Assembly (NCBI GenBank): GCA_022424815.1
Contig: JAKMGS010000001.1
Coordinates: forward strand, 1 to 44,284
Length of the DNA: 44,284 bases
Source: Schleiferiaceae bacterium
GTDB lineage: Bacteria; Bacteroidota; Bacteroidia; Flavobacteriales; Schleiferiaceae
Direction: 5' to 3'
Part shown: positions 1 to 32,500 of the stretch, in pieces
How positions within the stretch are numbered: position 1 is the first letter of the stretch
How the letters are laid out: each line of letters starts with the position of its first letter
The notes under the pieces: model-generated
Told to the model about the DNA's origin: nothing
Seen by the model: the letters and a program-made list of their open reading frames with translations, nothing else
The model's database searches: none
Program-made: the position numbers and the translations under genes

Positions 1-289
<289 letters not shown>

Positions 290-4019: not shown

Positions 4020-5183
4020 TTACTGCGCTAAGAATCCGTCAATATTGAAGGCCATGGAGAAACGAAGGGTGTTTTCCAGTGGCGAACGCGTGGTTGGACT
4101 GGCCGGAATGAGGTAGGCCATGTCGATCGTGAAGACGTTGTATTGAAGGCCGAATCCCATCGTCACGTATTGGCGGTTCCCCTTGAGTTTGTGCTCGTGG
4201 AGGTAGCCGGTACGAGCAAACAGGAAGTTGTCGTACTTGTATTCCAAACCGAAGTTATAGATGTTCTCCTGAAGCAACTCATCGAATCCACCTGGTTTCG
4301 CTGCTGGGTTGAAGCTCTGGAACACGCCCATCAATGGCGTAACATTATCATCCATACCGGCAACGATTTCACCATTAGTCCCTAATTCTGGGGGTGTAGG
4401 AACGACGAGACGGTTTAAATCTAAATAGACGGACATTTGGTTGTATTGGTCAATTTCCAAGTGGTATCCCCCACCGATGCGCAAATTCGTCGGCAAGAAG
4501 TCACTGTTTCCACTTTCGGAATAGGCGATTTTGGCACCCAAGTTTGTCAAGGCAATACCCGCAGACCAAGCCTGACGACGGCCACCTTTGATATTGTTAT
4601 AATCACTTTGATAATAAAATCCGAGGTCGGCCGCACCACTTTGGCCCGGTTTGGTTTGAAGACCCTGTACTACTTGGCCCTGTGCGATATCCGAATAGAT
4701 CCAACGCAATGCCGTTCCCGCGCTCCAATGATCGCTGAGCTTCAGGGCATAGGCTACATCGAGGTAGAATTCATAGGGATTGAAGGTACCCATTGAGTTT
4801 CCTTGCTCGTTAGTGAAGTTGATTTCCCCCAATGAGAAGTATCGCAACGAAGCGCTGATGCCTTGACGGTCGCTCAACGCTTTGGTGTAGTTTACGTAAG
4901 CTAGGTCGATATCTGGGACCAATTTCGACATCCACGGTGTGTACGACATCGCCATCGAAGCTTTCTTATTCTCCAAAAATGCCAATTTCGCCGGGTTCCA
5001 GGCACTTGAGTTGCCGTCCGGTGTACTCGCTACACCCACATCTCCCATGGCACCAGCTCGTGAATCTGGACTCACCAAGAGAATAGGTACTGCAGTGGTT
5101 ACCACATTGTATTTAAGGTTGCTTTGCGCTTTCGATTGGAAGGCAAATACTAATGCTAAGGAGAGGAATGCGAGTTTCTTCAT
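4020..5183 (-). CDS. porV: type IX secretion system outer-membrane protein PorV (LptO)
   Basis: Has a signal peptide and the characteristic N-terminus TTAVPILLVSPDSRAGAMGDVGVA. It has a beta-barrel-like alternating pattern and lies directly downstream of porU, as in Flavobacterium. Confidence 0.85.
   Translation of the reverse strand: MKKLAFLSLALVFAFQSKAQSNLKYNVVTTAVPILLVSPDSRAGAMGDVGVASTPDGNSSAWNPAKLAFLENKKASMAMSYTPWMSKLVPDIDLAYVNYTKALSDRQGISASLRYFSLGEINFTNEQGNSMGTFNPYEFYLDVAYALKLSDHWSAGTALRWIYSDIAQGQVVQGLQTKPGQSGAADLGFYYQSDYNNIKGGRRQAWSAGIALTNLGAKIAYSESGNSDFLPTNLRIGGGYHLEIDQYNQMSVYLDLNRLVVPTPPELGTNGEIVAGMDDNVTPLMGVFQSFNPAAKPGGFDELLQENIYNFGLEYKYDNFLFARTGYLHEHKLKGNRQYVTMGFGLQYNVFTIDMAYLIPASPTTRSPLENTLRFSMAFNIDGFLAQ
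4915..4924 (+). repeat. GGGACCAATT motif copy (in porV, antisense; sense reads L-V-P)
   Basis: Exact 10-mer read directly. Confidence 0.9.
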
Positions 5184-5213
5184 AGTTGGGTTAACGCTTG
5201 TCGCAGCGCAAGT

Positions 5214-8200: not shown

Positions 8201-8633
8201 TCGCATCGGAATAGGCATTATCCGAATAATTCGATGCTTCGGTTGAAGGACTGTAGGTTAGATCATAGCTCGGTGGTATGTAAAACCAGTAGATGGTGCT
8301 TGCCGAAAGGGTGGTTTCATTTACATCGTAAGGGATAGAGAAATCACCGGCCATGGGCTCGTTGGAGCTGTTCATTGGGAGTAGTGCGCCCTCTAATCGG
8401 CAACGAATCTCCAATTCCTCTGTAGGATCCCCGGCTGTTAGAATGCCTAAATCTATAATCTCGCTACCGGTTAATTTATACAGCCCGCTGTGTTGGTCTT
8501 CTGCTCCGTTGAGGGCAGAAATCCGGTGGTTTAGCGTTTTGAATCGGACATAGGTACCCTCATCAAAGGACATCTGCGCCACCACGAGTACCGGACTTAA
8601 ACACACGTATAATAAGAGTACAATTCTTTTCAC
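5214..8633 (-). CDS. porU: type IX secretion C-terminal signal peptidase PorU (gingipain/C25-like)
   Basis: Contains C25-like motifs: LLGDASYDYKG, the His block SYVGHGGEVGW and the Cys block FTTITCEFARFD. Start taken at the in-frame GTG 8633, which gives the signal peptide KRIVLLLYVCLSPVLVVAQ. The ORF-track start at 8768 would overlap the divergent neighbour. Confidence 0.8.
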   Translation of the reverse strand: MKRIVLLLYVCLSPVLVVAQMSFDEGTYVRFKTLNHRISALNGAEDQHSGLYKLTGSEIIDLGILTAGDPTEELEIRCRLEGALLPMNSSNEPMAGDFSIPYDVNETTLSASTIYWFYIPPSYDLTYSPSTEASNYSDNAYSDAKYFLVSGGNTSYQPIPLEQEQADSNARFLNARATWVYDTAMYNLVGTGRRWMGELFDFTTQRDYDFRQRTVGKSNSENSPILGTDINVQIRAVARASTSNTKLRIEYGNQTVQINFPAVMTGSVSNFVQEKVLTATFTADQGSTLRIIYDKAGNNAAAMWLDEVVVDWETSSEKQSPNKFMVNAPRSADSYSYFTTEASADLTIFGIENNRIVSKVVPIITGANEARWYSHEDKIRTYKFGVGSIGYVVDEVVDLNNSSTATYPDLGNAQSIIIAPDSLLGAAHDLADVERATGIDAEVVALEYIYDVMNTGNPDIGAIRKFLVRLFNDSEKLQYLTLLGDASYDYKGQLSGPKSNLIPTYHSKASFSLYSSYITDDYYGYLDADESVNWFLDDLDIGIGRIPVRTVQQAEQAVAKIEHYLTATERFGPWRMNALWVADDVDDGWEKEFEVVQDRLTKELDTIRTELNNIKIYADAFLQESMPGSQRYPEARKKLFREVENGALLVSYVGHGGEVGWATERILQLEDINTWENQTTLPVFTTITCEFARFDDPNRVSAAEQLHLNPNGGAIALFSTTRSVFATNSTYQLNELLNRNMLFLDQPRLGDVIRTTKNNNISGDKIKFSLMGDAALPLARPEDGLVFDSINGVAWDQFSDTIKALNWVQIKGSIRDDNGQTLTNINGRVWLQFYDKVQNVQTKTNDNRGGAFNFTTQNNAVFKGQATVVNGTFTFEFRVPLDINLSVGPPKIAAYATNFERDFWGASRQHLIGGVYDGVITDTEGPEVHLYINDTNFVSGGFSDPDPTALGFLYDESGINAVGLGIGHNLSLILDGQPVNVNDYYQSAIDDFTRGKITYPYYDLEYGEHTLELRAWDVLNQWGYDSIAFVVVDSEKPVLNQLLAYPNPFLDEVNFNLSHDESGEGGILIMDLFNNEGRILWHKEESLTLIGSETSLPSFKMSEIEGGRPGPGFYHIRVQFTRNVDGKSAAIQEKLIYIR
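5275..5284 (-). repeat. GGGTCCAATT motif copy (in porU, read as V-Q-F)
   Basis: Exact 10-mer read directly. Confidence 0.9.
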
Positions 8634-8758
8634 TTCCACAAATCTACTGCGCAATACATAACAAATGCCGGATAAAAAGCGTTTAAACAGGAACGAAAAG
8701 CAAGTGCAAATCGTACTTTTTTTGCTTATACTTGTTGCTTGAAAACATAGGTTTATCA

Positions 8759-9745
8759 ATGAACGCATTGAAATCGCGCATACTCACAGTGGCTATTACA
8801 CTGACAGCCAGCACCTTAAGCTTTGCTCAAGATGCTCACTTCAGTCAATATTACGCCAATCCTATCTACCTAAATCCGGCATTTGCGGGTCTAGAAAGAT
8901 GTCCTACAGTCCATACTAATTACCGAAATCAGTATCCTGAGCTCGGAGTATACCAGACTTATTCTGCCTCCTACGATCAATACGTAGACAAATTAAATGG
9001 TGGAGTAGCCGTAATGGCGCTGCGTGATGATGCAGGAAATGGCGCACTAAATCTGACCGAAGTCAGTGGAGTATATAGCTACCATTTAGAAGTAAACCGC
9101 AAGTTTACCTTATTGAGTGGTTTCCAAGCCACATTCCGTCAACGCACATTGGATTGGGGACAGTTTACATTCCCAGATATGATTGATCCGTTCTACGGCT
9201 TTGTTTTGCCCACGAATGAAATTGCGCCAGGTAACAATTATAACAATCACTTAGACCTGAGCTTCGGTATGCTAGGCTTTACTGAGCGTTGGTACATTGG
9301 TGTAGTGGGTCATCATTTGACCGAACCGAACGAAGCATTCTTGAGCCAGAGCCGTTTACCATTTAAACTTACTGCACATGCTGGGGCTAATCTTCCTCTC
9401 GGCCGTAAGCGACTGCACAATAGTTTACAATCTTACCTCGTTCCTAATATAGTATACCAACAACAAGGACCTGCATCTCAGTTGACTGCTGGTTTGAGTT
9501 TTGCTCGTGGACCTTTGGCAGGAGGTTTAGCTCTCCGTCAAGGAAGCTTCAACCCGGATGCTGTGATTTTCATTTTGGGAATCACCCCGCCTGACCTTCC
9601 CTGGACTTTTGGTTATAGCTATGATTACACCATTAGTGATCTAACCAATACACTAGGTGGTGCTCATGAAGTCAGCCTGGGCTACAAATTCCCATGCCGC
9701 ACACGTAAAAGCAAAATGAAACCTCTTAAGTGTCCTAAATTCTAA
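8759..9745 (+). CDS. PorP/SprF-family type IX secretion membrane protein
   Basis: Has a signal peptide followed by AQDAHFSQYYANPIYLNPAFAG, the PorP/SprF signature N-terminus. ATG at 8759 is preferred over TTG at 8732. Confidence 0.8.
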   Translation: MNALKSRILTVAITLTASTLSFAQDAHFSQYYANPIYLNPAFAGLERCPTVHTNYRNQYPELGVYQTYSASYDQYVDKLNGGVAVMALRDDAGNGALNLTEVSGVYSYHLEVNRKFTLLSGFQATFRQRTLDWGQFTFPDMIDPFYGFVLPTNEIAPGNNYNNHLDLSFGMLGFTERWYIGVVGHHLTEPNEAFLSQSRLPFKLTAHAGANLPLGRKRLHNSLQSYLVPNIVYQQQGPASQLTAGLSFARGPLAGGLALRQGSFNPDAVIFILGITPPDLPWTFGYSYDYTISDLTNTLGGAHEVSLGYKFPCRTRKSKMKPLKCPKF

Positions 9746-20922: not shown

Positions 20923-21509
20923 AAAACCTCCTTATAGCTCTTATTACCTTAACCAGCTTGTATGCTCAAGGTCAAGTAGAAGAATTGAATCAACGCACTC
21001 AGCTATTTATTAGTGAAATAGAGGATAGATTCAAAGTAAAGTCCATCAACGGTAACGTACCAGATTACGGCGTATTACCAGAAACTGAATTTGTGCAGCA
21101 TGAATACTACCAGCTCAAGCAATTGGAGAAAGAGGTGAATGAACTGGGCAATAAAGTCAAGCCCACCTATCACCTCAGCACCTTTGCCTATGAGGATGAA
21201 GATGAAATCTTGTATGCGCTAAAGTTCTGGTTCAAGTCGTTTATAGGTGATAAACGCATGACCCCTGGACGTGATTACCGTACCGTAGACCATGTTGTAC
21301 CTGCTATTATTGTTATTGAAAAGAACTACATTTCCATCCTCACTTTGAGCTGTTATGCCACCGATATTGAAGAGTTCCGTCAATGGCGCAGTGATATGCT
21401 TGGGGTATTCGGCGGGCCAAATTCAATAGTGATTGAAATAGGCTGCAACGGACCTATCGAATGGACCAAAAATGCACCGGACCCAAAAGACACGAAGTGG
21501 CGCCGCTAA
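20919..21509 (+). CDS. hypothetical secreted protein
   Basis: Has a signal peptide (MKNLLIALITLTSLYAQGQ) and an ATGA overlap with folC. I recognise no family motif. Confidence 0.55.
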   Translation: MKNLLIALITLTSLYAQGQVEELNQRTQLFISEIEDRFKVKSINGNVPDYGVLPETEFVQHEYYQLKQLEKEVNELGNKVKPTYHLSTFAYEDEDEILYALKFWFKSFIGDKRMTPGRDYRTVDHVVPAIIVIEKNYISILTLSCYATDIEEFRQWRSDMLGVFGGPNSIVIEIGCNGPIEWTKNAPDPKDTKWRR

Positions 21510-23008
21510 CCACGCATGAGCAAGGCCTCTTTTAGATGCCCTAGTTCCATGCACTGTTCTTCTCCTAAATCCATGATGGTCATAGCGACACCAAGGACTT
21601 GGCGACGACCTCTAATGCTAATCCGAGATTCTACACAGTGCTCCACCAACCATCGGTAAACATTCTGAGGCACGAGTCCTGAAAATAATATTTCTTCTTC
21701 TGAAAGCTGAGCGTTTTGCTTGCCTTGTCTGCTCATTTGAATGGACCAAGCTTGGTGTACTCTCCGTTGTATCAAAGTGCTCGTCTCCGCAGCTTCGAAC
21801 TCCTGTCTTGGCGCGGTAATGGGCACGCAAATATCAAAGCGGTCGCGCAAGGCTGCTTGAAAGCGCTGGCGGTGATTTTCTAGCGCAATAGGCGTACACT
21901 TACAAGGTGTCTGACTATTGAAATGGCCACATGGACAAGGATTGGCGGCAGCAATACATTGAAAGGTATAAGAATCCATGGGCTTAAGTAATGCAGCACG
22001 AAAACGCTCCTTGTGTTTGAGTAATTCATCGACGATGAGAACACCTCCCAAGCTTTTAATCAAAGTGGGGACCTGCTGCGGCTTACTCGGTAGTGCATGT
22101 GCGGGTATATCGGATAAATCTTGAGCGCCCCTAGTGAAGGCTTCAATGGCATGTTCCATGAGTTCCGGGGAATTGCCAAATATGGAGGCCAATGATTGCT
22201 CCAATCGCAACGACTCACACGGACGGTCCCCCGCTCTTTTGCCTATAGCCTCACCTAAACTCTGAACCAAGGCCGTGGTACGGACATTCGGCGGCGGCAA
22301 TATCGTATGCATTCGCTCCAATAACATCGTCTTCCCCAATCCCGGCGAACCTTCTGTCCAAAGATGGTGACCGCCGGCTGCAGCCACCTCCAGCGCTCGC
22401 TTGAGCATTTCGTGGCCTTCGACTTGGGTAAAGCACAAGGCATCTTGTTGTGCGATTTGCCGTTGCTCGCTGGTGATGGGCATCTGTTGCCAGTCTTCAG
22501 CCTGTAGTACATCTATAGCGTCCTGGAGATGAACCGCTCTCCCGATGCGAAATCCCTTGGGCAACGGAGCTGTGAAGGAAAAATCCGCATCAAATTGTAA
22601 GATGATGCCCTTTTTGCCCAGCGCTATGGCCCGCGCTATGGCATTGTATGGATCGTTTGCCTTTAGGAGGGTGCCGTCCAAGCCCAGATTACCCACAATG
22701 AGGTATTGGTCGAGATCCGGAAGGTGCAGCTGGTCAGAGGCGGCAAGGATGCCTAGGGCGATGGCCAGGTCGAGTTCGTATTGGCGAATGGGAATGGGGG
22801 ATTCCTCACACTGAATGGTGATGCGCTGGCCGGGCCATCGCCAGCCATTCGAGCGCAGGGCGGTATAGACCCTATTCCGGATCTCGTTTCCAGGGCGTGC
22901 GGGGATGCCGAGCAGGTGGAACTTTATGCCGCGCGAAATATTAATTTGTAGTTGGAGCGGGGCGACACCAAGGGTGTGGGTGTGGCACGAATAGGTGGTA
23001 ATAAGCAT
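21506..23008 (-). CDS. comM: divergent YifB/ComM-family Mg-chelatase-like AAA+ protein
   Basis: The N-terminal Lon-like domain is recognisable (GIKFHLLGIP, LAIALGILAASDQ). Walker A GSPGLGKT, Walker B VLIVDE, AAANPCPCG and DRFD are present. The RPFRxPHH block and about 15 aa before the NPCPCG block look altered or absent. Confidence 0.7.
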   Translation of the reverse strand: MLITTYSCHTHTLGVAPLQLQINISRGIKFHLLGIPARPGNEIRNRVYTALRSNGWRWPGQRITIQCEESPIPIRQYELDLAIALGILAASDQLHLPDLDQYLIVGNLGLDGTLLKANDPYNAIARAIALGKKGIILQFDADFSFTAPLPKGFRIGRAVHLQDAIDVLQAEDWQQMPITSEQRQIAQQDALCFTQVEGHEMLKRALEVAAAGGHHLWTEGSPGLGKTMLLERMHTILPPPNVRTTALVQSLGEAIGKRAGDRPCESLRLEQSLASIFGNSPELMEHAIEAFTRGAQDLSDIPAHALPSKPQQVPTLIKSLGGVLIVDELLKHKERFRAALLKPMDSYTFQCIAAANPCPCGHFNSQTPCKCTPIALENHRQRFQAALRDRFDICVPITAPRQEFEAAETSTLIQRRVHQAWSIQMSRQGKQNAQLSEEEILFSGLVPQNVYRWLVEHCVESRISIRGRRQVLGVAMTIMDLGEEQCMELGHLKEALLMRG

Positions 23009-23015
23009 GGGCGTT

Positions 23016-23038
23016 GGGTTTCCAAATAAATTGGACCC
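23016..23038 (-). promoter_or_regulatory. near-palindromic element GGGTCCAATTTATTTGGAAACCC, 7 nt upstream of the comM-like ATG
   Basis: The minus strand reads GGGTCCAATT-TATT-TGGAAACCC. It is nearly identical to the element at 31371-31396 upstream of radC. Confidence 0.5.
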
Positions 23039-23076
23039 TCATTCTCAGACTTCCAAAAAGTGTGAAAAAGTAAAAG

Positions 23077-24126
23077 TTATTCGCCCTGCTTATTCGCGAG
23101 CTGCCCACAAGCTGCGTCGATATCTTGACCGCGGGAATGACGCACGGTAGCTATAATACGATGCTCCTCCAAGATTCGTTTATACATATCCACGGCCTCT
23201 TGCGATGCCTGCGTGTACGGCCCATTGTCGATGGGATTGTACTGAATGATATTCACCTTTGTCGGTATGGCGCCACAAAACTTGGCGAGGGCGATGGCAT
23301 CGGCCTCCTCGTCGTTGATTCCACGCCAAATCACATATTCAAAGGTCACTCCGCGACCTGTATTGGCGTACCAATACTGCAGACTCTCACGCAAATCCGC
23401 GAGCGTGGTGCTCTTGTGTGCGAGCGGCATGAGTTTGGCGCGCTTTTCTTCGATGGCGCTGTGCAAGGAAATGGCGAGACCAAATTTGACCTGATCGTCC
23501 GCCATTTTTTTAATGAGCTTAGGAACGCCAATGGTGCTGAGCGTGATGCGCTTTGGCGACATGCCCAATCCTTTGGGATCGGTAATTTTATCAATGGCCT
23601 GCAGAACGTTATTATAGTTCAATAACGGCTCCCCCATACCCATAAACACAATGTTGGTCAACGGGCGGTCGAAGTATTCCTTACCCTGCTCATCGATCAC
23701 GACGACTTGGTCGTAAATCTCGTCCGGGGTGAGGTTACGCATACGTTTGAGTCCGGCGGTGGCACAGAAAGTACAATCGAGGCTACACCCTACTTGCGAA
23801 CTTACACAAGCGGTAATGCGCTTCTCGGTTGGGATGAGTACAGATTCCACCATGGCCCCATCGTGCAGCTTCACCGCATTTTTGATGGTGCCGTCTTTCG
23901 AACGCTGCATGAGGTCGACCTCCAGGAGATTGAAAAAGAAATGTTCTTCGAGTAGGGCTCGGGTGGATTTGCTCAGGTTGGTCATCTCGTCAAACGACGA
24001 AGCACTCTTTTGCCACAGCCACTGATAGACTTGCTTGGCGCGAAAGGCTTTTTCGCCATTGGCCTCAAAGAATTGGACCATCTGATCCTGAGATAAGCTA
24101 CGTATGTCCCTTTTGGCGGTTTCCAT
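23077..24126 (-). CDS. rlmN: 23S rRNA/tRNA (adenine-C2)-methyltransferase RlmN (radical SAM)
   Basis: Contains the radical-SAM cluster CSLDCTFCAT, GMGEPLLN and the C-terminal DIDAACGQL. Confidence 0.9.
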   Translation of the reverse strand: METAKRDIRSLSQDQMVQFFEANGEKAFRAKQVYQWLWQKSASSFDEMTNLSKSTRALLEEHFFFNLLEVDLMQRSKDGTIKNAVKLHDGAMVESVLIPTEKRITACVSSQVGCSLDCTFCATAGLKRMRNLTPDEIYDQVVVIDEQGKEYFDRPLTNIVFMGMGEPLLNYNNVLQAIDKITDPKGLGMSPKRITLSTIGVPKLIKKMADDQVKFGLAISLHSAIEEKRAKLMPLAHKSTTLADLRESLQYWYANTGRGVTFEYVIWRGINDEEADAIALAKFCGAIPTKVNIIQYNPIDNGPYTQASQEAVDMYKRILEEHRIIATVRHSRGQDIDAACGQLANKQGE

Positions 24127-24146
24127 GTGGCAAAGATAGCGAAGCC

Positions 24147-25007
24147 TTAAGGCATATCGCGCTCTACGAGGTAGCCCATTTTACCCATTTGATAATCGCG
24201 CATGGCCTCCATGATTTCCGTTTGACTGTTCATCACGAAGGGACCATAGGTTTCCAATTTCTCTTGAATAGGCGCCGCACTCACAAAAAGAAGCTTGGTC
24301 GGCGTTGAAGGAATGAGGGTATGATGCCCTGGGACCAATTCATATAAAAAGTGCTCCTCCACCATGCCGTACCCTTCTAATCTACCGCCGCCGCTAAGCG
24401 AGTACAACAATCCATGTTCGCCTTCTTTCACCTCAAAAGTCACCGCCGCATCTGCCGCAGCCGTGCCGTGCACGCTAGAGATAGGATAGGCGCTCTGAAG
24501 CGGCCCCTTAGGACCACCTGCGATAGGAGTTCCAGCCGAAATGCGCAGGTCTTGATGACCCGCAACTTCTGGCATTTCATCTTTTTGCAACGGAATATAA
24601 TTGGGCTCCATGCCCTTGGCACGTTTGGGCAGGTTGATCCAAATCTGTACGATCTCCTGCATCCCACCTTCCTCGCAAAGCTTGGCTGGCGGACGTTCAG
24701 AGTGGATAATGCCCATACCTACGTCCATCCATTGTACGCCGCCATCATCGACCACACTGTTGTTGCCTCGGCTATCTCGATGGTGTACCCCGCCTTCCCA
24801 CATGAAGGTCACCGGCGTAAACCCGCGGTGCGGATGCGGCCCTACCCCTGCATTCCAGCGGTCCGTCCCCGGCTCCACGAAATTCGCGTGGTGGTGGATC
24901 AGCAGAAAAGGGTCGATATGTTCGACTTGTTGTGTAGGCAAGGGTTGCTTGAGGGGATGCTCCCCCATCATCACGTCGTAGGCTTGAATGGCTCTTTTCA
25001 CAGACAT
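24147..25007 (-). CDS. pirin family protein
   Basis: The cupin motif HPHRGFTPVTFMWEG is characteristic of pirins. Confidence 0.85.
   Translation of the reverse strand: MSVKRAIQAYDVMMGEHPLKQPLPTQQVEHIDPFLLIHHHANFVEPGTDRWNAGVGPHPHRGFTPVTFMWEGGVHHRDSRGNNSVVDDGGVQWMDVGMGIIHSERPPAKLCEEGGMQEIVQIWINLPKRAKGMEPNYIPLQKDEMPEVAGHQDLRISAGTPIAGGPKGPLQSAYPISSVHGTAAADAAVTFEVKEGEHGLLYSLSGGGRLEGYGMVEEHFLYELVPGHHTLIPSTPTKLLFVSAAPIQEKLETYGPFVMNSQTEIMEAMRDYQMGKMGYLVERDMP
24331..24340 (+). repeat. GGGACCAATT motif copy (in the pirin gene, antisense; sense reads L-V-P)
   Basis: Exact 10-mer read directly. Confidence 0.9.
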
Positions 25008-25008
25008 A

Positions 25009-25713
25009 TTATGCGTTTAAAATAATTGGGACCAATTCTTCCAAATGGGCAATCTCAAAAGTCAATTTCTCGTGGTGAGGCACCTGCTTAGGGTTGAAAT
25101 AGACCTGGTCAATGCCCTGCTCCCTCGCCCCAACGCAATCCGCAATGAGGTTATCACCGATCATCAAACTCTCCTTGCGCTCAGCACCGGTGAGCCGGAG
25201 GGCGCGGCGGAAAATCTTTGGATCCGGCTTGTTTACCCCCACTTGGTCACTGCAGAGCAACAAATCAAAAAGCGGCTCGAGACCACTTTCGGCAAATTTG
25301 ATGTTTTGACTTTCGTGAAAACCATTGGTTATGACATGTAAAACACAGCCTGCTGCTTTTAGTTCTTGCAATACCTCAGCGGCACTTTCAATCAAGTGGT
25401 TTTGATAGGGCGTTTCCTTAATGTAGCGGAGTTCCATCTCCCAGGCCACATCCTTAGCGCTCACCCCAAAATGCTCGAAAGTTTCGCGAAATCTAGTTTC
25501 ACGAAGGGTTTGCTTATCAATGGCCCCGGCGCGGTACAGATCCCATTTCAGGTCATTGATGGTGATGTATTTATCGAAGAACTGCTCGAAACTGGGTAAC
25601 CCTAAACCCGGCAATCCTAAATCTGCATAGAGGTTGCGCAGGGACATTTCAGAGTTTTTCTCGAAGTCCCAAAGGGTATGATCCCAATCAAAGAAGAGGT
25701 GTTTGTATTTCAC
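25009..25713 (-). CDS. HAD-superfamily hydrolase (YjjG-like nucleotidase/phosphatase)
   Basis: HAD motif I FFDWDHTLWDF, motif II ITNG and motif IV GDNLIADCVGA are present. I prefer GTG 25713, which forms a GTGA overlap with the upstream stop and puts DxD near the N-terminus. The alternative is ATG at 25752. Confidence 0.75.
   Translation of the reverse strand: MKYKHLFFDWDHTLWDFEKNSEMSLRNLYADLGLPGLGLPSFEQFFDKYITINDLKWDLYRAGAIDKQTLRETRFRETFEHFGVSAKDVAWEMELRYIKETPYQNHLIESAAEVLQELKAAGCVLHVITNGFHESQNIKFAESGLEPLFDLLLCSDQVGVNKPDPKIFRRALRLTGAERKESLMIGDNLIADCVGAREQGIDQVYFNPKQVPHHEKLTFEIAHLEELVPIILNA
25028..25037 (+). repeat. GGGACCAATT motif copy (in the HAD gene 3' end, antisense; sense reads L-V-P)
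   Basis: Exact 10-mer read directly. It is embedded in AATTGG-GA-CCAATT. Confidence 0.9.
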
Positions 25714-26642
25714 GAACGTGTGGTTTTGGGTTTTCGCCAACGCAGGTACCAAGGCAGGTTATTCTCTACGTGGAAATAGAAAGGTTCATCATGGGCGCCA
25801 AAGCCGCTGTAGAAGCGCGCCAATCCAGGAATGCTACTTCCTTCAAAATCCAATATATGGTCAGAGCCTGCGTGAAGGTGAATCATTTGATCGATGAGTA
25901 AGGTCGGTGCGCCACATTCTTTGCCGTAGCTCGAACTGGCGTTGAGCAAGAGGGTGGAACGACCATGGAATTGGACCCAAATCTGACCAGCAACCAGAGT
26001 ATTTCCCTCATCATATACGGCCAGCAGTACGCCTCTTTTCTGGTACAAGCAAAACTCCAAGACCTTGGCTAAACTATCGATGTTTTCAGCGGTAATAGCG
26101 GTCTTGTCCTGGGTATTGTGCTTCCATAAGCGCACGACATCTTGAGTAGTAGCCCATTGCGCAGATTCCAAGGAACTCTTTTGTGCCTTTTTCAGGTTGC
26201 GCTTGGTCTGCGCACTATATCCAGTGGCTAATTCCTCATACGAGGCCTTGGTGGACAAAATAAAATTTGAATACTTCTCAGGGGTCCAATGGGACGGGAA
26301 AGCCACGCCGGGTGAAAGAAAGAATTCCCCGTAGGCAAAATGTTTCATCGCTTCCTCCATCAACGCTTCTACCCACTGTGAGGACAACGGAATGGTCGAA
26401 TACGGGCCTACAGCCTGTGTCCCATAAGGACGCGTGGTAAAAGAAATGCCGTTTTTCTCTCTTGGAAACAACGGAAAAACCACTTCGTAATCCCCATAAA
26501 TAAGCGCATCCCAGGTTGGGGCTACCCAATTCAGGTACCAGCTAAATCCATAAGGTTGCGGATGTGCTGTGGCAGCCACACATCGATCCCAACGTTCGAA
26601 ATCGATCTCGGCATGTGGAATGTACTTAAGGTTTGGCCGCAT
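25710..26642 (-). CDS. FemAB-like / BioF2-like GNAT acyl(aminoacyl)transferase family protein
   Basis: The N-terminus EIDFERWDRCV...YGFSWYLNWVAPTWDALIYGDYEVVFPL resembles the FemAB-related GNAT proteins of polysaccharide loci. Start taken at MRPNLKY (26642). The assignment rests on motif memory only. Confidence 0.5.
   Translation of the reverse strand: MRPNLKYIPHAEIDFERWDRCVAATAHPQPYGFSWYLNWVAPTWDALIYGDYEVVFPLFPREKNGISFTTRPYGTQAVGPYSTIPLSSQWVEALMEEAMKHFAYGEFFLSPGVAFPSHWTPEKYSNFILSTKASYEELATGYSAQTKRNLKKAQKSSLESAQWATTQDVVRLWKHNTQDKTAITAENIDSLAKVLEFCLYQKRGVLLAVYDEGNTLVAGQIWVQFHGRSTLLLNASSSYGKECGAPTLLIDQMIHLHAGSDHILDFEGSSIPGLARFYSGFGAHDEPFYFHVENNLPWYLRWRKPKTTRS
25969..25978 (-). repeat. GGGTCCAATT motif copy (in the FemAB-like gene, read as V-Q-F)
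   Basis: Exact 10-mer read directly. Confidence 0.9.
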
Positions 26643-27936
26643 CAATAAAGGATTTATAGACCTCAGCCCAGCCCTTCCATTGGGGCTCAAATTCACTAAA
26701 CGTGCGGTTGTGCCAAACCGAGATTAACGTGCCGCCAACGGCTTTCACCACGGGTACCCATTGCTTCATCCCTGCCAAGGCTTCCTCTGCACCAACATTC
26801 AAATAGGTGTCCCCATAATAGGTCACGTCCATGAAGGCGAAAGGATGAAGGTTGAGCGGCAACTCCATCTCTAGTTCAACGTCGTAAAAGGTGTATGCCG
26901 AAGCGATGCTCGCACGGAACCCGGGCAATTCGGTGTACCCCATGCTGTGTTCGTCTTTAATGCCCAATTCTATCAAATTTCTGAATGTATGCGGCGTTCG
27001 CATGCGCAGGTAATGTTGTCGACTTTGCGTTACTGGTCGACGGACCACATCCTGCAACATCTGACGTTCATTGCCGACCACTTCCAAATCGCTATTCGAT
27101 GCGTAGCTCGGATGAATACCTAGCATAGCCCAATCTGCAATCTCTCTCAAAGTAATAGCAGCATCCTTACTATAAGGACTTACATTGCGATCTTTAGGTC
27201 CAAACTCCGCAAAGAGCATGAAGTACAATGCCTTCACATCCGAGCTCTTGTTCCAGTTACGCTGTTTTCTAAACGTATCATAGGGATCCCGGCGCCAATT
27301 TGATAGCGCTAAGGCTCTCATGCGAAACATCTTCAAATTAAATGTTATCAGATCTTTCGCAAATGCACCCACCGTTCGTAAAGCACCCTTTCCCTTGAAA
27401 GCAAACAGGTTATCAATATCAACGGTGGTCAAGTATTGGTAGCGCTGGCTTAAATCAAAAGAAGCCTCGAACCAAAGCTTGCCCAAGGCCAGCGCCCATT
27501 CATTGACCACTGGACGTTCCAAAAATTCATTCTTAAAAGCAAAACTCTCCTTGGCTGGAAAGCGTCCATGTACATCCGCAATAAAAGGGAGGTATTCCTC
27601 ATATCGCGACACCAAGAAAAAGGTGGCCGCAATAGGATCGAAAGGCAAATCGCCTACCTGACGTTGACATACGGTAGGAATCCCTTCCCATTGTCCAGCA
27701 TAGAGCTCTTGCTCCACGATATCCTGTTCCCAAATAAGTTTATGAGGAAGGATCTGAAAGATCCCTTCCATCGGGGTAGCGCTATAGTTGATTCTAAACC
27801 CCTCGGCTTGATCGAACGCTTCCATTTCCTTGTACACCACATACGACACGCCCATAGCCTTGCTCAGCAAAACCTTGGTCGCCCACCTAAACCGCGGACT
27901 ATCCTGCGTCGTATATATGGCTACTACGGCATCCAT
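26626..27936 (-). CDS. polysaccharide-deacetylase-like (CE4-related) protein with an N-terminal extra domain
   Basis: The block ATFFLVSRYEEY is followed by CE4-like motifs TVDIDN, GIHPSY, SRQHYLRM and VWHN. This is a tentative family call. Confidence 0.45.
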   Translation of the reverse strand: MDAVVAIYTTQDSPRFRWATKVLLSKAMGVSYVVYKEMEAFDQAEGFRINYSATPMEGIFQILPHKLIWEQDIVEQELYAGQWEGIPTVCQRQVGDLPFDPIAATFFLVSRYEEYLPFIADVHGRFPAKESFAFKNEFLERPVVNEWALALGKLWFEASFDLSQRYQYLTTVDIDNLFAFKGKGALRTVGAFAKDLITFNLKMFRMRALALSNWRRDPYDTFRKQRNWNKSSDVKALYFMLFAEFGPKDRNVSPYSKDAAITLREIADWAMLGIHPSYASNSDLEVVGNERQMLQDVVRRPVTQSRQHYLRMRTPHTFRNLIELGIKDEHSMGYTELPGFRASIASAYTFYDVELEMELPLNLHPFAFMDVTYYGDTYLNVGAEEALAGMKQWVPVVKAVGGTLISVWHNRTFSEFEPQWKGWAEVYKSFIDAAKP

Positions 27937-28637
27937 TGTCCTCCATTAACGTGTAGGGTTTGACCCGTGGTATACTCGCTGCCCAGCAAATAGCTGATGG
28001 CCTCTACAATCTGTTCGGGACGCCCAAAAGCGTCCATAGGGATGGTTGTTTTTACTTGGGCCAACAACTCCTCAGGCACATCATGCAACATGCCTGCGTT
28101 CATATAACCATAGGCAATGGTGTTAGCTGTGATGCCCTTCTGGGCAAGGTCGATGGCCACACCGCGCATATATCCTTCTACCGCACTCTTCGATGCCGTA
28201 TAAGCACTTGTACCGAAAGAAGGCTTGTGCGCCACCACACTACTGATGGAAATAACTCGCCCGCTCCCTTTGGCGCGCATGTGCATCAAGGCATGCTGGG
28301 TACAGCGTACGGCACTCAAGAAATTAATATCCATTAAGCGCGACATCTCCGCAGCCTCGAGCTTCCACGATGCGGCGGCATGGGCAACACCCGCATTATT
28401 AATGAGTACATCACAACCGCCGTGCTGCTCTACCCACGCAAAAAGCGCCCCTACCTCTTCATCCGAGGTCAAGTCAGCACCAAAGCACTGGCCTTCGATT
28501 CCCTCGCGCTCGCAATGCTCGCGCAAAGAATCCACCGCTCTAGTGGTCAACAACAATCGGTAGCCAAGCTTGGCTAGTTCTGGCAGCATGGCCTTCGCCA
28601 TACCCCCTCCTGCTCCAGTAAGGACTATATTTTTCAT
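27924..28637 (-). CDS. SDR-family oxidoreductase (FabG-like)
   Basis: Contains TGAGGGMA, NNAG and S...YTASK. It forms an ATGA overlap with the upstream gene. Confidence 0.85.
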   Translation of the reverse strand: MKNIVLTGAGGGMAKAMLPELAKLGYRLLLTTRAVDSLREHCEREGIEGQCFGADLTSDEEVGALFAWVEQHGGCDVLINNAGVAHAAASWKLEAAEMSRLMDINFLSAVRCTQHALMHMRAKGSGRVISISSVVAHKPSFGTSAYTASKSAVEGYMRGVAIDLAQKGITANTIAYGYMNAGMLHDVPEELLAQVKTTIPMDAFGRPEQIVEAISYLLGSEYTTGQTLHVNGGQWMP

Positions 28638-29551
28638 GCGCCTTCCGGGGTATACATGGTCACCCCGTTTGTTCTATATTCTTCTAAAAGTACCGATTTA
28701 AACAGAGATGCATCCACCAACAAACTTGGCGCCTCTCCGATACGAACGTGCTTCAACGCACCTTTGGCTTCCAATAACGGGATAAGTCCATCGCACTTGC
28801 GCTGGGCACTGACCGCCGGATTGTGCAATTTCGTCACCACATTCACCTTACGCCCTCCGACCAATACCACGGGGAAGGTCCTACTCTCCGGCAAATACAC
28901 GGGGAACGAAAAACCCTTCCAACCAATGGTATCTTCCACTGCATGCAAGCTCGTACCGCTATTGATCAGCGTGGTCCCGATGTACAACAACTGCCCGCCC
29001 GAAGCGAGGTGTTTGGTCCATGGGCTTTGCGGCCCATAGGGAGTCCCGTCGGTATGGTGACCGGTGGTATACCACTGTGCCTTTGGCCCTTTAACAGCTA
29101 CGGGTTCGAGCGGATGCGCCGATCTTGCGTCAGCCACTTCTCGGCGGAAATATTCGGTTATGGTCCCCATCTTGCTCGGGGTCTCTGCGACGCTAAAGGC
29201 CGTTTGTGGGTGCTCCGCTTGCAAGGTAATGACCGGGCTTGAGGGCATCAACAAATGCGCCTCTTCTCCCACAAGCTCCAACAAGGCTGCAACCACCGTG
29301 GCGGGACCACCTTCTACATATCCAATGGAGCTCATAGCGCTATGCACTAACAAATCTGTACCCGGCGCCACGCCAGCGGCCTTGAGGCTTTCCACGAGTG
29401 ATGCTTTGGTCCACACATCTCCCGCAGCTTTACGGGCTGCCAAGTCCTTGCGAACCTTGGCTTTTTTACGGTTTCTGTTCCATTGCAGCAGCGGCTGAGG
29501 AACCAGTGATCGAAGTATATCTTTAGCGCTCATGCTTTGCGTTCCATTCAT
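28634..29551 (-). CDS. AAC(3)-family N-acetyltransferase (aminoglycoside 3-N-acetyltransferase fold)
   Basis: DLLVHSAMSSIGYVEGGPATVVAALLELVGEEAHLLMP matches the conserved N-terminal core of the AAC(3) family. The start could instead be M7 at 29533. Confidence 0.7.
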   Translation of the reverse strand: MNGTQSMSAKDILRSLVPQPLLQWNRNRKKAKVRKDLAARKAAGDVWTKASLVESLKAAGVAPGTDLLVHSAMSSIGYVEGGPATVVAALLELVGEEAHLLMPSSPVITLQAEHPQTAFSVAETPSKMGTITEYFRREVADARSAHPLEPVAVKGPKAQWYTTGHHTDGTPYGPQSPWTKHLASGGQLLYIGTTLINSGTSLHAVEDTIGWKGFSFPVYLPESRTFPVVLVGGRKVNVVTKLHNPAVSAQRKCDGLIPLLEAKGALKHVRIGEAPSLLVDASLFKSVLLEEYRTNGVTMYTPEGA

Positions 29552-30716
29552 TTAGTAACGTATCCACTAAGTATTTGGTGGCCCAATTCGGTAATCCAAA
29601 ACTCTCATACCTCCCCCACATAGGGTAAGAACCCGGTAAGGCTCCGCCCACGTCCATCGAGGCACGTGCCCCACTGGTCGCCACGACCGAAAGCAACGTA
29701 TTCATTGTATCGCGTGCCTCCAGAGCCCAAGGCGCTCTAATCTTATGCCACAAAATGGCAAGTTGTGCTCCTCCTGTAGGAATAAAAGCTTCCGAGCCCC
29801 GCCACTGGGCATCATAGCGCCCGTGTAAGATCCCCTCCGCAAGGAATCGCTTGGCAAGTACCTCAGCGCCACCAATGGACGCATCTATATAACGTTGTTC
29901 TCCCAACCGTTGACCTGCATCAAAAAGGCCATCTAGGGTGTAGGCGATGGTATGGATGATGGGGCGATCGTTTTTATGTAAGGTATTATCACAATTCGCC
30001 AACCAATAGTGCTCGTTTTGCTGGGTTAGGACCCAATTCAAATGGTGGTGGCTATGGGCTTCCCAAGCATCACGGCATTCAGGAAATTCCGGCAACCAGT
30101 CCAAAATGGGTGCAACGACATAAGTACCGTACACCCGCACGGCGCCCATGAAATCATTGGTGGAAAACTGCCCTTGATCGTCGAGCTGGTCCCAGATCCA
30201 ATCAATGGCGCGTTTGGCCGCCTCCGCATACGCGCGATCCCCCGTATGGCGGTACAGCGGCAATAGCCCGCGCAAGATTTGTCCGGTATTAAAGACTACT
30301 GAAGGGCGCTGCTGATGCACATACCCGCCTGGCCATCCTCCATCTTCGTGTTGGATGCTCAGCAGCCATTGCCCCGCGTCCTCAGACGCAGCGCGAGCCT
30401 CTCGGGCCCAAGGAAAATTTGATTCCGTACTGTAGCGCAGCAGCGTATCGATGATGTACCCGGTGGTCTCTGGATAGGAAGAGGTCCAACCGCTGTGGTG
30501 GTAATAAGTCCCCGACCCGCGATCTGCCCCGCTATTGATGCTGTGGATGAGCCAACGCACAGCGTGGTGCATGGAGCGCTCCTTATCCGCTTCGCTATGG
30601 TGTTTGAGGTAGGATTTTAGGTACAAGCGATTGTTCCATTCAGCGAATAAATACCGCCAATGATCGTACTTTCCCAAAAACGAATGCCAACGTCGGACAT
30701 ACGCTGCTACTCCCAT
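29523..30716 (-). CDS. prenyltransferase/squalene-cyclase-repeat (alpha/alpha toroid) protein
   Basis: Has a QW-type repeat, AGQWLLSIQHEDGGWPGG, plus further aromatic/Gly-rich helical-hairpin-like blocks. The fold assignment is tentative and the function is unknown. Confidence 0.45.
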   Translation of the reverse strand: MGVAAYVRRWHSFLGKYDHWRYLFAEWNNRLYLKSYLKHHSEADKERSMHHAVRWLIHSINSGADRGSGTYYHHSGWTSSYPETTGYIIDTLLRYSTESNFPWAREARAASEDAGQWLLSIQHEDGGWPGGYVHQQRPSVVFNTGQILRGLLPLYRHTGDRAYAEAAKRAIDWIWDQLDDQGQFSTNDFMGAVRVYGTYVVAPILDWLPEFPECRDAWEAHSHHHLNWVLTQQNEHYWLANCDNTLHKNDRPIIHTIAYTLDGLFDAGQRLGEQRYIDASIGGAEVLAKRFLAEGILHGRYDAQWRGSEAFIPTGGAQLAILWHKIRAPWALEARDTMNTLLSVVATSGARASMDVGGALPGSYPMWGRYESFGLPNWATKYLVDTLLNEWNAKHER

Positions 30717-31351
30717 TACAACAATCCTTGATCTGAAAAGCTAAAGTAGCCACTACGCGCCACAATTAAGTGGTCCAAGAGCTTGATATCTAAAGTATCT
30801 GCCGCGGCACTCAACTTTCTTGTCATGCGTTTGTCATTTTCACTGGGAGCCAAGGCCCCACTGGGGTGATTGTGGGCCACGATGATGGCGGTAGCATTCC
30901 AATGCAAGGCGCGTTTGAGGATAAGCCGAACGTCGGTCAAGGTACCCGTTAAGCCGCCTTTGAATAGTTGGTGACAGGCCAGCGGCGCATGGGCTCTATT
31001 GAGGTAGAGGACGTGGAATTCTTCGTGGGCTGGGAATTCGAGGTGCTTAAAGTGGGCGTAGGCATCTTGGCTTTTCCGGATGGCGTGCTCCATAGGCTTG
31101 GGGGTGCTCCAGGCTTGGTGTAGTGCGAGTACGGCCATGATTTGCTTCGCTTTTTTGGGGCCAATTCCCTTAATCTCCCGCAGCGCATCTTCGTCCATCT
31201 GCAGGATCCGATTAAAGTCGAGAAAATACTCGTTCAACGCTTGCTCCAGCTCTTCCACACTTTGGTAGCGTGCCCCACCGTTGAGGATGTAGCTCATGAG
31301 TTTGGCCGTAGACCATTGCTGGGTCGTTTCATAAAAGGATTGTTTTTCCAT
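30716..31351 (-). CDS. radC: RadC-family JAB-domain protein (UPF0758)
   Basis: Has an N-terminal helix-hairpin-helix (EIKGIGPKKAKQIMAV) and the JAMM motif HNHPSGALAPSENDKRMT. Confidence 0.9.
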   Translation of the reverse strand: MEKQSFYETTQQWSTAKLMSYILNGGARYQSVEELEQALNEYFLDFNRILQMDEDALREIKGIGPKKAKQIMAVLALHQAWSTPKPMEHAIRKSQDAYAHFKHLEFPAHEEFHVLYLNRAHAPLACHQLFKGGLTGTLTDVRLILKRALHWNATAIIVAHNHPSGALAPSENDKRMTRKLSAAADTLDIKLLDHLIVARSGYFSFSDQGLL

Positions 31352-31370
31352 GGGGTTGAATTTTGATAAG

Positions 31371-31396
31371 GGGTTTCTAATAAATTAATTGGACCC
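31371..31396 (-). promoter_or_regulatory. near-palindromic element GGGTCCAATTAATTTATTAGAAACCC in the radC / glycosyltransferase divergent spacer
   Basis: The plus strand reads GGGTTTCTAATAAATTAATTGGACCC, against GGGTTTCCAAATAAATTGGACCC at 23016-23038. It lies 19 nt upstream of the radC ATG and 25-50 nt upstream of the GT GTG start. Confidence 0.5.
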
Positions 31397-31420
31397 AAAG
31401 AATTATCCTACTTTTAACTC

Positions 31421-32500
31421 GTGAAGATTGCTGTTCTAGGATCAAGAGGAATTCCCAACCGCTACGGCGGCTTCGAAGAGATGGCTGCCCAAGTCGCCCC
31501 ACTGTGGGTCAAGGCGGGCCATGAGGTCGTCGTCTACACTACCAGCGACCATCCCGATAAGGTGGAAGAAGTGGCCGGCGCGCGCATCAAGTACATATTC
31601 AATCCCGAGAGCACTTTCGGACTCGCGGGCCAATTCATCTACGACCTGCTCTGCATCCTCGACGCACGACGCGAAGGTTTTGACATTTACTTGCAGCTGG
31701 GCTACACCACTTCAGGCATCTGGTCCTTCCTGTGGCCGAAGAAAAAAACCATGACCAACATGGACGGGTTGGAACACCAAAGGGCCAAATACAAGGGTCC
31801 GTTGTCGATATTCTTGCGATGGTCGGAGCGCAGGGCGGCCAAACGTTCACAACTTTTAGTTGCTGACAACCCGGAGATCGCCCGCTACCTCGCCAAATAC
31901 AACAAGCCTACCCAAACCATCGCCTACGGCAGCCACGTGGTGGAGGCGTCCGAAAACGCCGCGCAGATCTTACAGGAAGCCGGCCTTCCGACCCACAACT
32001 TCCACGTTAATATTGGCCGTATACAACCAGATAACCACGTTTGGGAGATTCTTGCGGCCGCGGAAGAAAGCGGTGAAACTGTAGTGGCTATTGGAGACTA
32101 TAGCACGAGGTATGGACGGAAGCTGCGCAAAATTTTCGATGCGAAGAACCTCCATTTCCCTGGGACTATTTACGATAAAACGGTCTTGAATGCCCTGCGC
32201 ACTCAAGCGGTGTTTTACCTACATGGACACAGTGTAGGCGGTACCAACCCTGCATTGCTTGAGGCAATGGGATGTGGCGCCATGGTCTTGGCACACAACA
32301 ATCCTTTTAACGCGAGTGTCTTGGGAGGGCTGGGCGCCTTATGGTCGGATGAAGAAGAACTCAAGGAATTATTGAAGCAGCGTCCCTCAGCCGACGTGAA
32401 GGCAGAACAAGCTGAAATCTCTAAGGGGCGGGTGAAGGACTATTTTAATTGGTCCCAGATCGCAAATCAGTACCTCGAGGCCATGGCCGGCCTACAATAA
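31421..32500 (+). CDS. GT4-family glycosyltransferase with a DUF1972-type N-terminus
   Basis: MKIAVLGSRGIPNRYGGFEEMA is the DUF1972 signature, and the C-terminal GT1/GT4 block is GHSVGGTNPALLEAMGCG. It has a GTG start. Confidence 0.8.
   Translation: MKIAVLGSRGIPNRYGGFEEMAAQVAPLWVKAGHEVVVYTTSDHPDKVEEVAGARIKYIFNPESTFGLAGQFIYDLLCILDARREGFDIYLQLGYTTSGIWSFLWPKKKTMTNMDGLEHQRAKYKGPLSIFLRWSERRAAKRSQLLVADNPEIARYLAKYNKPTQTIAYGSHVVEASENAAQILQEAGLPTHNFHVNIGRIQPDNHVWEILAAAEESGETVVAIGDYSTRYGRKLRKIFDAKNLHFPGTIYDKTVLNALRTQAVFYLHGHSVGGTNPALLEAMGCGAMVLAHNNPFNASVLGGLGALWSDEEELKELLKQRPSADVKAEQAEISKGRVKDYFNWSQIANQYLEAMAGLQ
32447..32456 (-). repeat. GGGACCAATT motif copy (in the glycosyltransferase gene, antisense; sense reads N-W-S)
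   Basis: Exact 10-mer read directly. Confidence 0.9.

Follow-up and report, generated by a model that had tools for sequence, protein, structure and literature searches.

A promoter-like element shared by a comM-like gene, radC and a third operon in Schleiferiaceae

What signal do the start regions of a comM-like gene and of radC share in a Schleiferiaceae genome? The stretch of DNA that we analysed, positions 1 to 44,284 of contig JAKMGS010000001.1 (assembly GCA_022424815.1; 44,284 nt, hereafter the window), carries a short element just upstream of each gene, and a preliminary description took the two copies for an imperfect inverted repeat acting as a shared operator. Both copies read on the plus strand as it gave them, GGGTTTCCAAATAAATTGGACCC at 23016-23038 (site S1) and GGGTTTCTAATAAATTAATTGGACCC at 31371-31396 (site S2), and on the coding (minus) strand their ends stand 7 nt from the comM-like ATG (23008) and 19 nt from that of radC (31351); the identities of the downstream genes, a YifB/ComM-family gene and RadC, are upheld. 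The sites do differ by a 4-nt AATT insertion; what had been counted as about 2 nt of further difference is one substitution and one 1-nt deletion (23 versus 26 nt). The term near-palindromic fits the comM site, which holds TCCAA-N5-TTGGA, and fits the radC site poorly, whose RNA fold (-2 kcal/mol) is no better than shuffles. Our answer, to which we give about even confidence, is that the element is a dedicated non-canonical core promoter or regulatory signal that marks a small competence-like gene set, and not an operator for a dimer. What survives of the preliminary interpretation is a shared, specific and conserved signal on DNA-uptake and DNA-processing genes; the palindromic operator does not.

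Within the window, the resemblance of the two sites is suggestive, not decisive. The pattern GGGTTTC-N8-15-GGACCC, chosen after the sites were seen, occurs at two places, S1 and S2, against 0 of 100 shuffles. In a Smith-Waterman comparison of all pairs of 70-nt upstream regions of the window, comM/radC ranks 5th of 666, with a score of 14.5 (mean 8.2, standard deviation 1.7), and the longest exact word of this control, the 10-nt GGGTCCAATT, belongs to the same pair. With such a rank, the window alone does not prove the kinship of S1 and S2, and the proof comes from other genomes.

We scanned one genome per species (185,579 species) with GGGTTTCYAAN{1,8}AATTGGACCC, which yields 16 stretches, 14 of them from Schleiferiaceae, Cryomorphaceae or Flavobacteriales metagenome-assembled genomes (MAGs). 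All 14 belong to one of precisely three contexts, and no genome has more than three copies: S1 between rlmN and comM, S2 between radC and a divergently transcribed glycosyltransferase gene, and a third site, S3, which lies 6 nt before the start of a gene for a 207-residue protein, follows an FKBP gene, and leads into a gene for a 471-residue protein that overlaps the 207-residue one. The remaining two stretches are chance matches inside genes of a Veillonellaceae MAG and of a Pedobacter. The likeness of S1 and S3 extends across about 65 nt, between the stop codon of the preceding gene and the ATG (ATAACTTTTA..TTTyCACA..TTGG..GGGTCCAATTTATTTGGAAACCC), and a sample with 98% of the window's words also contains S3 with the element intact. 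A profile built only from S3 copies of other genomes, a non-orthologous site, finds as its top two matches in the 44-kb window S1 (E-value 6.4e-17 over 75 nt) and S2 (E-value 0.0053). With nhmmer profiles we find no additional copy in about 260 kb of lineage DNA, and a scan of JGI metagenomes with CCAATTTATNNGGAAACCC returns S1 and S3 copies and unrelated chance matches only. The preliminary description had raised against itself the possibility of a generic intergenic repeat; these results show that the element is none.

The third match of the S3 profile in the window, TTAGGGTCCAATTCACCCGAAA at 5273-5304 (minus strand, E-value 0.054), has 13 nt in common with the S3 site and falls within the 3' end of a porU-like C25 peptidase gene, some 90 nt short of where porV starts, and is probably due to chance. 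Other pairs of upstream regions score as high as comM/radC: CCCTTAAAC precedes the glutamate-dehydrogenase-like gene and the CitMHS transporter gene (upstream of 15114 and 16343), and (T)TAACCCAA precedes porV and the acyl-CoA dehydrogenase gene (upstream of 5183 and 14003). A low-GC match, L029, was dropped because it has no real genes (L numbers are our labels for the sequences compared). GCACCAATTTATTGGGAAACCCGGAGAAGCGGGTAAATTGGTGC is a multi-copy palindromic repeat of an unrelated organism, with up to three copies per 10 kb, that shares a 19-mer with the element by chance; its carriers are L043, L048, L051, L070, L072, L094, L104, L115 and L118 (Ga03348xx contigs).

Protein look-ups, which do not depend on the pattern, recover the element upstream of comM and radC orthologues in related genera, where the preliminary description had suggested looking for it. 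Conservation within the genus says little: against 72-86% identity at third codon positions, S1 has 95% and S2 98%, but the remaining gaps that carry promoters do as well, with 94-95%. Across genera, the radC-to-comM synteny is kept in relatives whose ComM is only 32-43% identical, and S3 keeps all 23 nt at a downstream protein identity of 36%. In a further genus S3 reads CCAATTTATAGGGAAACCCC, 6 nt before the ATG. S1 reads GCCAATTTATGAGGAAACCCC in L026, from the genome whose ComM is 32% identical, and GGTCCAATTTATAGGAAAAC, GGGTCCAATTTGAAGAGAAAC and GCCAATTTATATAGGTAT in L018, L119 and L120; S2 reads GAACTTATAAAGAAACCC in L024 (same genome as L026) and TAGCTTAATAAGGAAACC in L022. The consensus of 13 aligned cores is asymmetric, CCAAyTTAT-N2-3-GGAAAC(CCC), and, in the manner of a core promoter, it always points the same way and stays close to the start codon. 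For the most part, the left GGGT and the TCCAA/TTGGA dyad belong to the one genus, although S3 retains them in a second lineage (L004/L023). The right half-site of the dyad is lost in L026, L106, L018, L017 and L120, with the asymmetric core retained. The reading as an imperfect inverted repeat serving as a shared operator is therefore not sustained: the dyad is lost across genera, the spacing of its half-sites differs by 3 nt between S1 and S2, and what is conserved is asymmetric.

What kind of signal is the core? In 15 of 17 S1, S2 and S3 sequences, T(T/A)GG stands 19-20 nt upstream of an 8-nt box, nAAyTTAw, and the spacers are unrelated; the 19-21 nt spacing of -33/-7 promoters is thus found in the same 15 sequences. 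In Flavobacterium psychrophilum the -7 box, TAnnTTTG, occupies -12 to -5 (PMC9723704), and with this layout the predicted start is the A of GGAAAC. The predicted leaders are 12-13 nt long at S1 and S3 and 20-29 nt at S2. The parts of the two window sites and the genes around them are as follows.

23016-23038, minus strand: site S1, the element as found, GGGTCCAATTTATTTGGAAACCC, 7 nt 5' of the comM-like ATG; best match of the S3-only profile
23026-23033, minus strand: S1 box D, -7-like, part of the deeply conserved core, CAATTTAT, placed by alignments and geometry
23016-23023, minus strand: S1 box E, conserved start region, GGAAACCC; predicted +1 at 23021
23053-23056, minus strand: S1 -33-like TTGG, 19 nt (20 from TTG) upstream of box D
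23061-23066, minus strand: S1 box B, TTCACA, common to S3 and kept in S1 of other genera
23071-23080, minus strand: S1 box A, ATAACTTTTA, common to S3 and kept in S1 of other genera
21506-23008, minus strand: ComM-like gene (YifB family, divergent), from profile matches
23077-24126, minus strand: rlmN, co-directional and upstream of S1, with no terminator; a source of read-through RNA across S1
31371-31396, minus strand: site S2, the element as found, GGGTCCAATTAATTTATTAGAAACCC, 19 nt 5' of the radC ATG; second match of the S3-only profile
31380-31387, minus strand: S2 box D, TAATTTAT
31370-31378, minus strand: S2 box E, AGAAACCCC; predicted +1 at 31375
31407-31410, minus strand: S2 -33-like TAGG, 19 nt upstream of box D, overlapping the -7-like box of the glycosyltransferase gene on the opposite strand
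30716-31351, minus strand: radC, first gene of the same-strand string that ends with comM, from profile matches
31409-31416, plus strand: -7-like box of the divergent GT4 glycosyltransferase gene, TACTTTTA, 4 nt before the GTG
31421-32500, plus strand: GT4 glycosyltransferase gene, divergent from radC, start codon GTG

S1 thus lies in the 68-nt gap between rlmN and comM, and S2 in the 69-nt divergent gap between radC and the GT4 glycosyltransferase gene. Box D does not follow the TAnnTTTG form: it reads CAATTTAT, TAATTTAT, GAACTTAT or TAGCTTAA, always without the TTTG end. Canonical TAnnTTTG boxes are found at neighbouring genes, TATCTTTG at rlmN, TACCTTTG at queA and TACATTTG at the acyl-CoA dehydrogenase gene, so box D is of a distinct class, and it has no match among the six motif classes of F. 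psychrophilum (PMC9723704). Box D together with the conserved start region looks like a separate promoter class. Boxes A and B of S1 are candidates for a second promoter, an UP-like element or an activator site. A sigma-54 promoter and an extracytoplasmic-function (ECF) sigma promoter were both rejected, by eye, with the spacing off by one and no common -12/-10 element. At two neighbouring genes a -7-type box stands 4 nt before the start codon, TATCTTTG-CCAC-ATG at rlmN (24127-24146) and TACTTTTA-ACTC-GTG at the glycosyltransferase gene (31409-31420); given this gap, we predict leaderless mRNAs for both.

Which genes does the signal mark? The product of 21506-23008 matches the ChlI, Mg_chelatase, Mg_chelatase_C and YifB/ComM models, the last below the NCBIfam cut-off (TIGR00368 score 219 versus a cut-off of 362). 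It belongs to a Schleiferiaceae clade of shortened, divergent ComM AAA+ proteins, and the window copy is 34% identical to those of other genera, with RadC at 64%. The segment from Walker B to the NPCPCG motif is far shorter than is typical of ComM. The product of 30716-31351 matches RadC profiles. In the S3 operon, the second gene encodes the 471-residue protein, whose family is small, with 22 representatives in a set of 1.84 billion proteins. The protein starts with a signal-peptide-like stretch, followed by its most conserved segment at residues about 29-92, and a beta-rich remainder. The ComEA-type helix-hairpin-helix (HhH) model PF12836 (HHH_3) matches the conserved N-terminal segment in 8 of 12 family members with E-values of 8e-4 to 0.07, all of them below the Pfam cut-off (13.7-19.9 versus 27 bits). 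The family profile also matches both HhH domains of EEPD1 (PDB 9yi2_A, E-value 1.8e-4), and the AlphaFold model of the protein, with a pLDDT of 32, is too poor for use. These matches suggest that the S3 operon encodes an exported protein with a ComEA-type HhH domain. The three operons that share the signal would then be the ComM-like gene, radC with its downstream string, and the operon of the exported ComEA-type HhH protein. With a ComEA-type HhH in the S3 operon, all three targets would be gene classes of competence regulons elsewhere, and the same motif stands before several DNA-uptake and DNA-processing operons, as expected of a competence signal. In Riemerella anatipestifer, transposon insertions in the YifB/ComM gene lower transformation about 100-fold, and an HhH-domain protein is essential for natural transformation (PMC8459023).

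Near S3 there is also a LytS-type sensor kinase gene (L014:136-2139 and orthologues), whose product combines His_kinase and HATPase_c with an extensive extracytoplasmic part at the N-terminus. The kinase and FKBP genes are divergent neighbours in the window's genus and in L004/L023, and in L106 they stand about 2 kb apart; no LytTR partner was seen in the relatives' loci examined. Two of the target genes are decayed in places. In one metagenome contig (L054:5773-5897), comM is a 41-codon in-frame remnant, with codons 1-16 fused to about 472-500, with both rlmN and the upstream element preserved. Two MAGs, UBA8576 and UBA10897 (L006:2524-2790 and L013:208-474), have a radC without codons about 24-143 (some 120 codons), and in L006 its ATG is replaced by ATA; in both, the element and the neighbouring genes are intact.

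In the window, ten same-strand genes (21506-31351, minus strand) follow one another with overlaps or tiny gaps, radC first and comM last: radC, a 397-residue protein, an Antibiotic_NAT-family acetyltransferase, an SDR, a DUF7033 protein, a 328-residue protein, a HAD hydrolase, pirin, rlmN and comM. The string has a higher G+C than its flanks and its order is kept across genera; L024 and L025 have five additional genes between the HAD and pirin genes. Elsewhere in the window, a 16S rRNA gene (1-288, minus strand) is cut by the window start (positions 1-287 of the bacterial model), and a type IX secretion cluster at 4020-9745 includes porV-like, porU-like C25 peptidase and PorP/SprF-like genes.

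Does the element act as DNA or as RNA? We find no Rfam family match, either at the gathering threshold or at E-values up to 10, and RNAalifold reports no consensus pairs for the S1 and S3 module. An intrinsic terminator or stable hairpin in the window was rejected, as the folds are no better than shuffles: the S1 hairpin has -7.5 to -9 kcal/mol with a z-score of about -1 (to -1.3), and the S2 fold a z-score of +1.8 to +1.9. In other genera, the S1 leaders of all six orthologues fold better than shuffles (z-scores -1.65, -2.95, -2.59, -3.76, -2.37 and -5.29), with the AUG within or abutting the 3' arm and the 5' arm overlapping the predicted -5..+4. Stem sequences vary from one to the next (UAGGAAA/UUUCCUA, GUAGGA/UCCUAC, UAUAGGUA/UACCUAUA, AUGAG/CUCAU and GAAGAG/CUCUUC). 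S3 leaders have the same tendency (z-scores -0.9, -2.1 and -1.9), and S2, which has no co-directional upstream gene, is mostly without such a hairpin. The absence of a common RNA structure argues for recognition at the level of sequence. Metatranscriptome contigs cross the rlmN-comM junction, so either read-through RNA exists or the libraries contain DNA.

From these observations we propose how the element could work. Its anatomy would be T(T/A)GG at about -33, a spacer of 19-20 nt, nAAyTTAw (CAATTTAT) replacing the housekeeping TAnnTTTG, and the start region GGAAAC(CCC), within which transcription is predicted to begin. The box diverges from the sigma-A consensus at the end that is conserved best, and the start region is kept at non-orthologous sites; from both we infer that a specific factor reads the signal, perhaps an alternative sigma, or an activator or repressor with its place of action at -12..+7. 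The three operons would then share their expression and form a small, competence-like set for DNA uptake and processing. At the rlmN-comM junction and at the junction of FKBP with the third operon, where the upstream gene is co-directional and has no terminator, the signal would sit inside an inverted repeat whose 5' arm lies upstream of the predicted start. A read-through RNA with both arms could fold, mask the leader or the AUG, and be poorly translated; an RNA from the internal promoter would be without the 5' arm.

Several observations weigh against this proposal. The known targets are only three, and pattern-based scans would miss diverged members; a full set might have more genes and a theme other than DNA uptake. 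The decay of comM and radC in some strains fits a strongly selected pathway poorly; together with the divergent ComM clade, it makes relaxed selection on the pathway possible in places. The RNA data are assembled, unstranded contigs, which run through the two intergenic regions and reveal no transcript ends. S1 of L017 and of L018 has no -33-like TTGG, and the S2 element is shifted by 3-4 nt relative to S1 and S3. Since the S2 TAGG is the complement of the neighbour's -7 box, its spacing is possibly constrained otherwise. And box A (TAACTTTT, in S1 and S3) is closer to a sigma-A -7 box than D is, so D and E could be 5' untranslated region.

Four other explanations have to be weighed. In one, the element acts as RNA in the 5' leader, a motif or hairpin near the start codon setting translation or stability, with the promoter upstream, at box A, or in the preceding gene. 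It would explain why six S1 leaders of other lineages beat shuffles with the AUG in a stem though the stem sequences differ, why box A resembles TAnnTTTG, and why RNA contigs cover the element; and Bacteroidota, without Shine-Dalgarno pairing, have initiation tuned by leader structure (PMC6847099). We consider it unlikely, as S1 and S3 have no consensus structure and no Rfam match, the window leaders fold no better than shuffles (z-scores -1.3 at S1 and +1.9 at S2), and S2 keeps the sequence blocks without pairing: what is conserved is the asymmetric core sequence, not pairing.

Another explanation, to which we assign a low probability, needs no common regulation: the sites would be ordinary weak housekeeping promoters or leaders, alike by an old duplication of an intergenic module and by general constraint. 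The within-genus figures agree with it, as other promoter gaps (94-95%) are as conserved as S1 and S2, and so do the rank of the pair in the window-only control (5th of 666) and the full 65-nt module common to S1 and S3, as after a duplication. It does not account for a core that persists at all three loci across genera with diverged flanks, for a box D unlike the canonical boxes of the neighbours, or for one functional theme among three targets.

A dimeric repressor is the third possibility, for example the non-canonical LexA-like SOS regulator of Bacteroidota, which would bind (T)CCAA-N5-TTGG(A) and repress three operons until DNA damage. S1 and S3 have a perfect 5+5 dyad, built 4-N5-4 like the published motif, and the position of the site, across the predicted -7/+1 region, is usual for repressors. 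The CTAA-N5-TTAG regulon is predicted to include RadC, and examples of diverged dyads are known (PMC8565304). The dyad, however, is broken in other genera with GGAAAC retained (CCAA-TTTAT-GAGG, -AGGG, -AGGA), and the good half-sites of S2 are 8 nt apart, not 5; at boxes of the CTAA-N5-TTAG type, changes of spacer length abolish binding (PMC8565304). The window has no CTAA-N5-TTAG, its other three CCAA-N5-TTGG matches are intragenic, and a ComEA-like gene and comM are unusual SOS members. All matches of the other SOS box, GGA-N5-TCC, lie away from S1 and S2 in the window, and recA, dinB/umuDC and a gene for such a regulator are outside both the window and the relatives' loci examined. We rate a dimeric repressor as quite improbable. 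Finally, a mobile or recombination repeat, such as a miniature inverted-repeat transposable element (MITE), a repetitive extragenic palindrome (REP) or an attachment (att) site, is very hard to credit: the two window copies are in direct orientation and flank an 8.3-kb segment of higher G+C (0.50-0.53 between them versus 0.43-0.47 outside), but the gene order of the whole segment is kept in distant relatives, only three copies occur per genome, in fixed orientation just before a start codon, and the segment carries housekeeping genes (rlmN).

A dedicated core promoter or regulatory signal is thus the reading that we prefer. A bolder extension of it we advance only tentatively, thinking it rather doubtful: Schleiferiaceae may run a dedicated natural-competence programme from an undescribed promoter class (a CAAyTTAT -7 box with the GGAAACCCC start region) read by a lineage-specific sigma or activator, with targets that include a new exported DNA receptor, a ComEA-type HhH fused to a beta-rich, possibly outer-membrane, domain, and with fold-back hairpins that silence read-through transcripts. 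On the conservative reading, three similar promoters by themselves are a modest annotation of regulatory DNA. A cis-signal that links a ComM-like gene, radC and a ComEA-like exported protein is a handle for listing the rest of the set in Schleiferiaceae genomes, could help identify the factor that reads it, and nominates the lineage-restricted HhH/beta-rich protein as a candidate DNA receptor. It would bear on how genes are exchanged among Schleiferiaceae, which are abundant uncultured Flavobacteriales of marine and estuarine waters and common members of the marine bacterioplankton. If the promoter does lie inside a hairpin, the arrangement would show how a chromosomal gene can be insulated from read-through where, as in this phylum, initiation is not Shine-Dalgarno-based.

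How does the element compare with known systems? To our knowledge, only a few Bacteroidota species have documented natural transformation, and neither a regulon nor a regulatory signal has been described for the process. The Riemerella screen found genes needed for transformation, not their control (PMC8459023). With the Bacteroidota sigma-A promoter (-33 TTTG, -7 TAnnTTTG; PMC9723704) the element shares a T(T/A)GG 19-20 nt upstream, A2, T5 and T6 of the box, and the short distance to the start codon; it differs in a box that ends in TTAT or TTAA, not TTTG, and in a GGAAAC(CCC) conserved between unrelated loci. The nearest described system in the phylum is the pair of SOS boxes of its non-canonical LexA proteins, CTAA-N5-TTAG and GGA-N5-TCC, with RadC a predicted member (PMC8565304). 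The 4-N5-4 dyad of S1 and S3 is one symmetric change from CTAA/TTAG, but the dyad of the element is not kept across genera, S2 does not have the right spacing, and apart from RadC no target is an SOS gene.

For the hairpins, the comparison is with fold-back inhibition of the IS10 transposase, reportedly described by the Kleckner laboratory in the 1980s, in which transcripts from outside are said to carry both arms and mask the translation start. Here too the promoter would lie inside an inverted repeat and the RNA from the internal promoter would be without the 5' arm; the likeness is drawn from sequence alone, the element is at a chromosomal operon junction, not in a transposon, and the hairpin of the window's genus stops 7 nt before the AUG and does not cover it.

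Two competence systems of other phyla are closest in content. The CRP-S regulon includes comM, radC and a ComEA homologue (comE1). In Pasteurellaceae, Vibrionaceae and Enterobacteriaceae, where CRP-S acts with Sxy (TfoX), the target content therefore overlaps with the set described here, but there a dimer binds 22-bp palindromes that lie farther up than the core promoter, and the element is asymmetric and overlaps -7/+1. A CRP-S regulon is mentioned in PMC5809987. In streptococci, ComX (sigma-X) reads the cin-box or com-box, a non-housekeeping -10-equivalent box on DNA-uptake and DNA-processing operons that include comEA and radC, in a small regulon. The cin-box of the late competence genes reads TACGAATA, against CAAyTTAT...GGAAAC here; the phylum and the geometry (-33/-7 here) differ as well, no ComX-like sigma is known here, and our three targets have so far been recognised by their DNA sequence only. 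In its overall form, the signal appears more like the cin-box than like the CRP-S palindrome.

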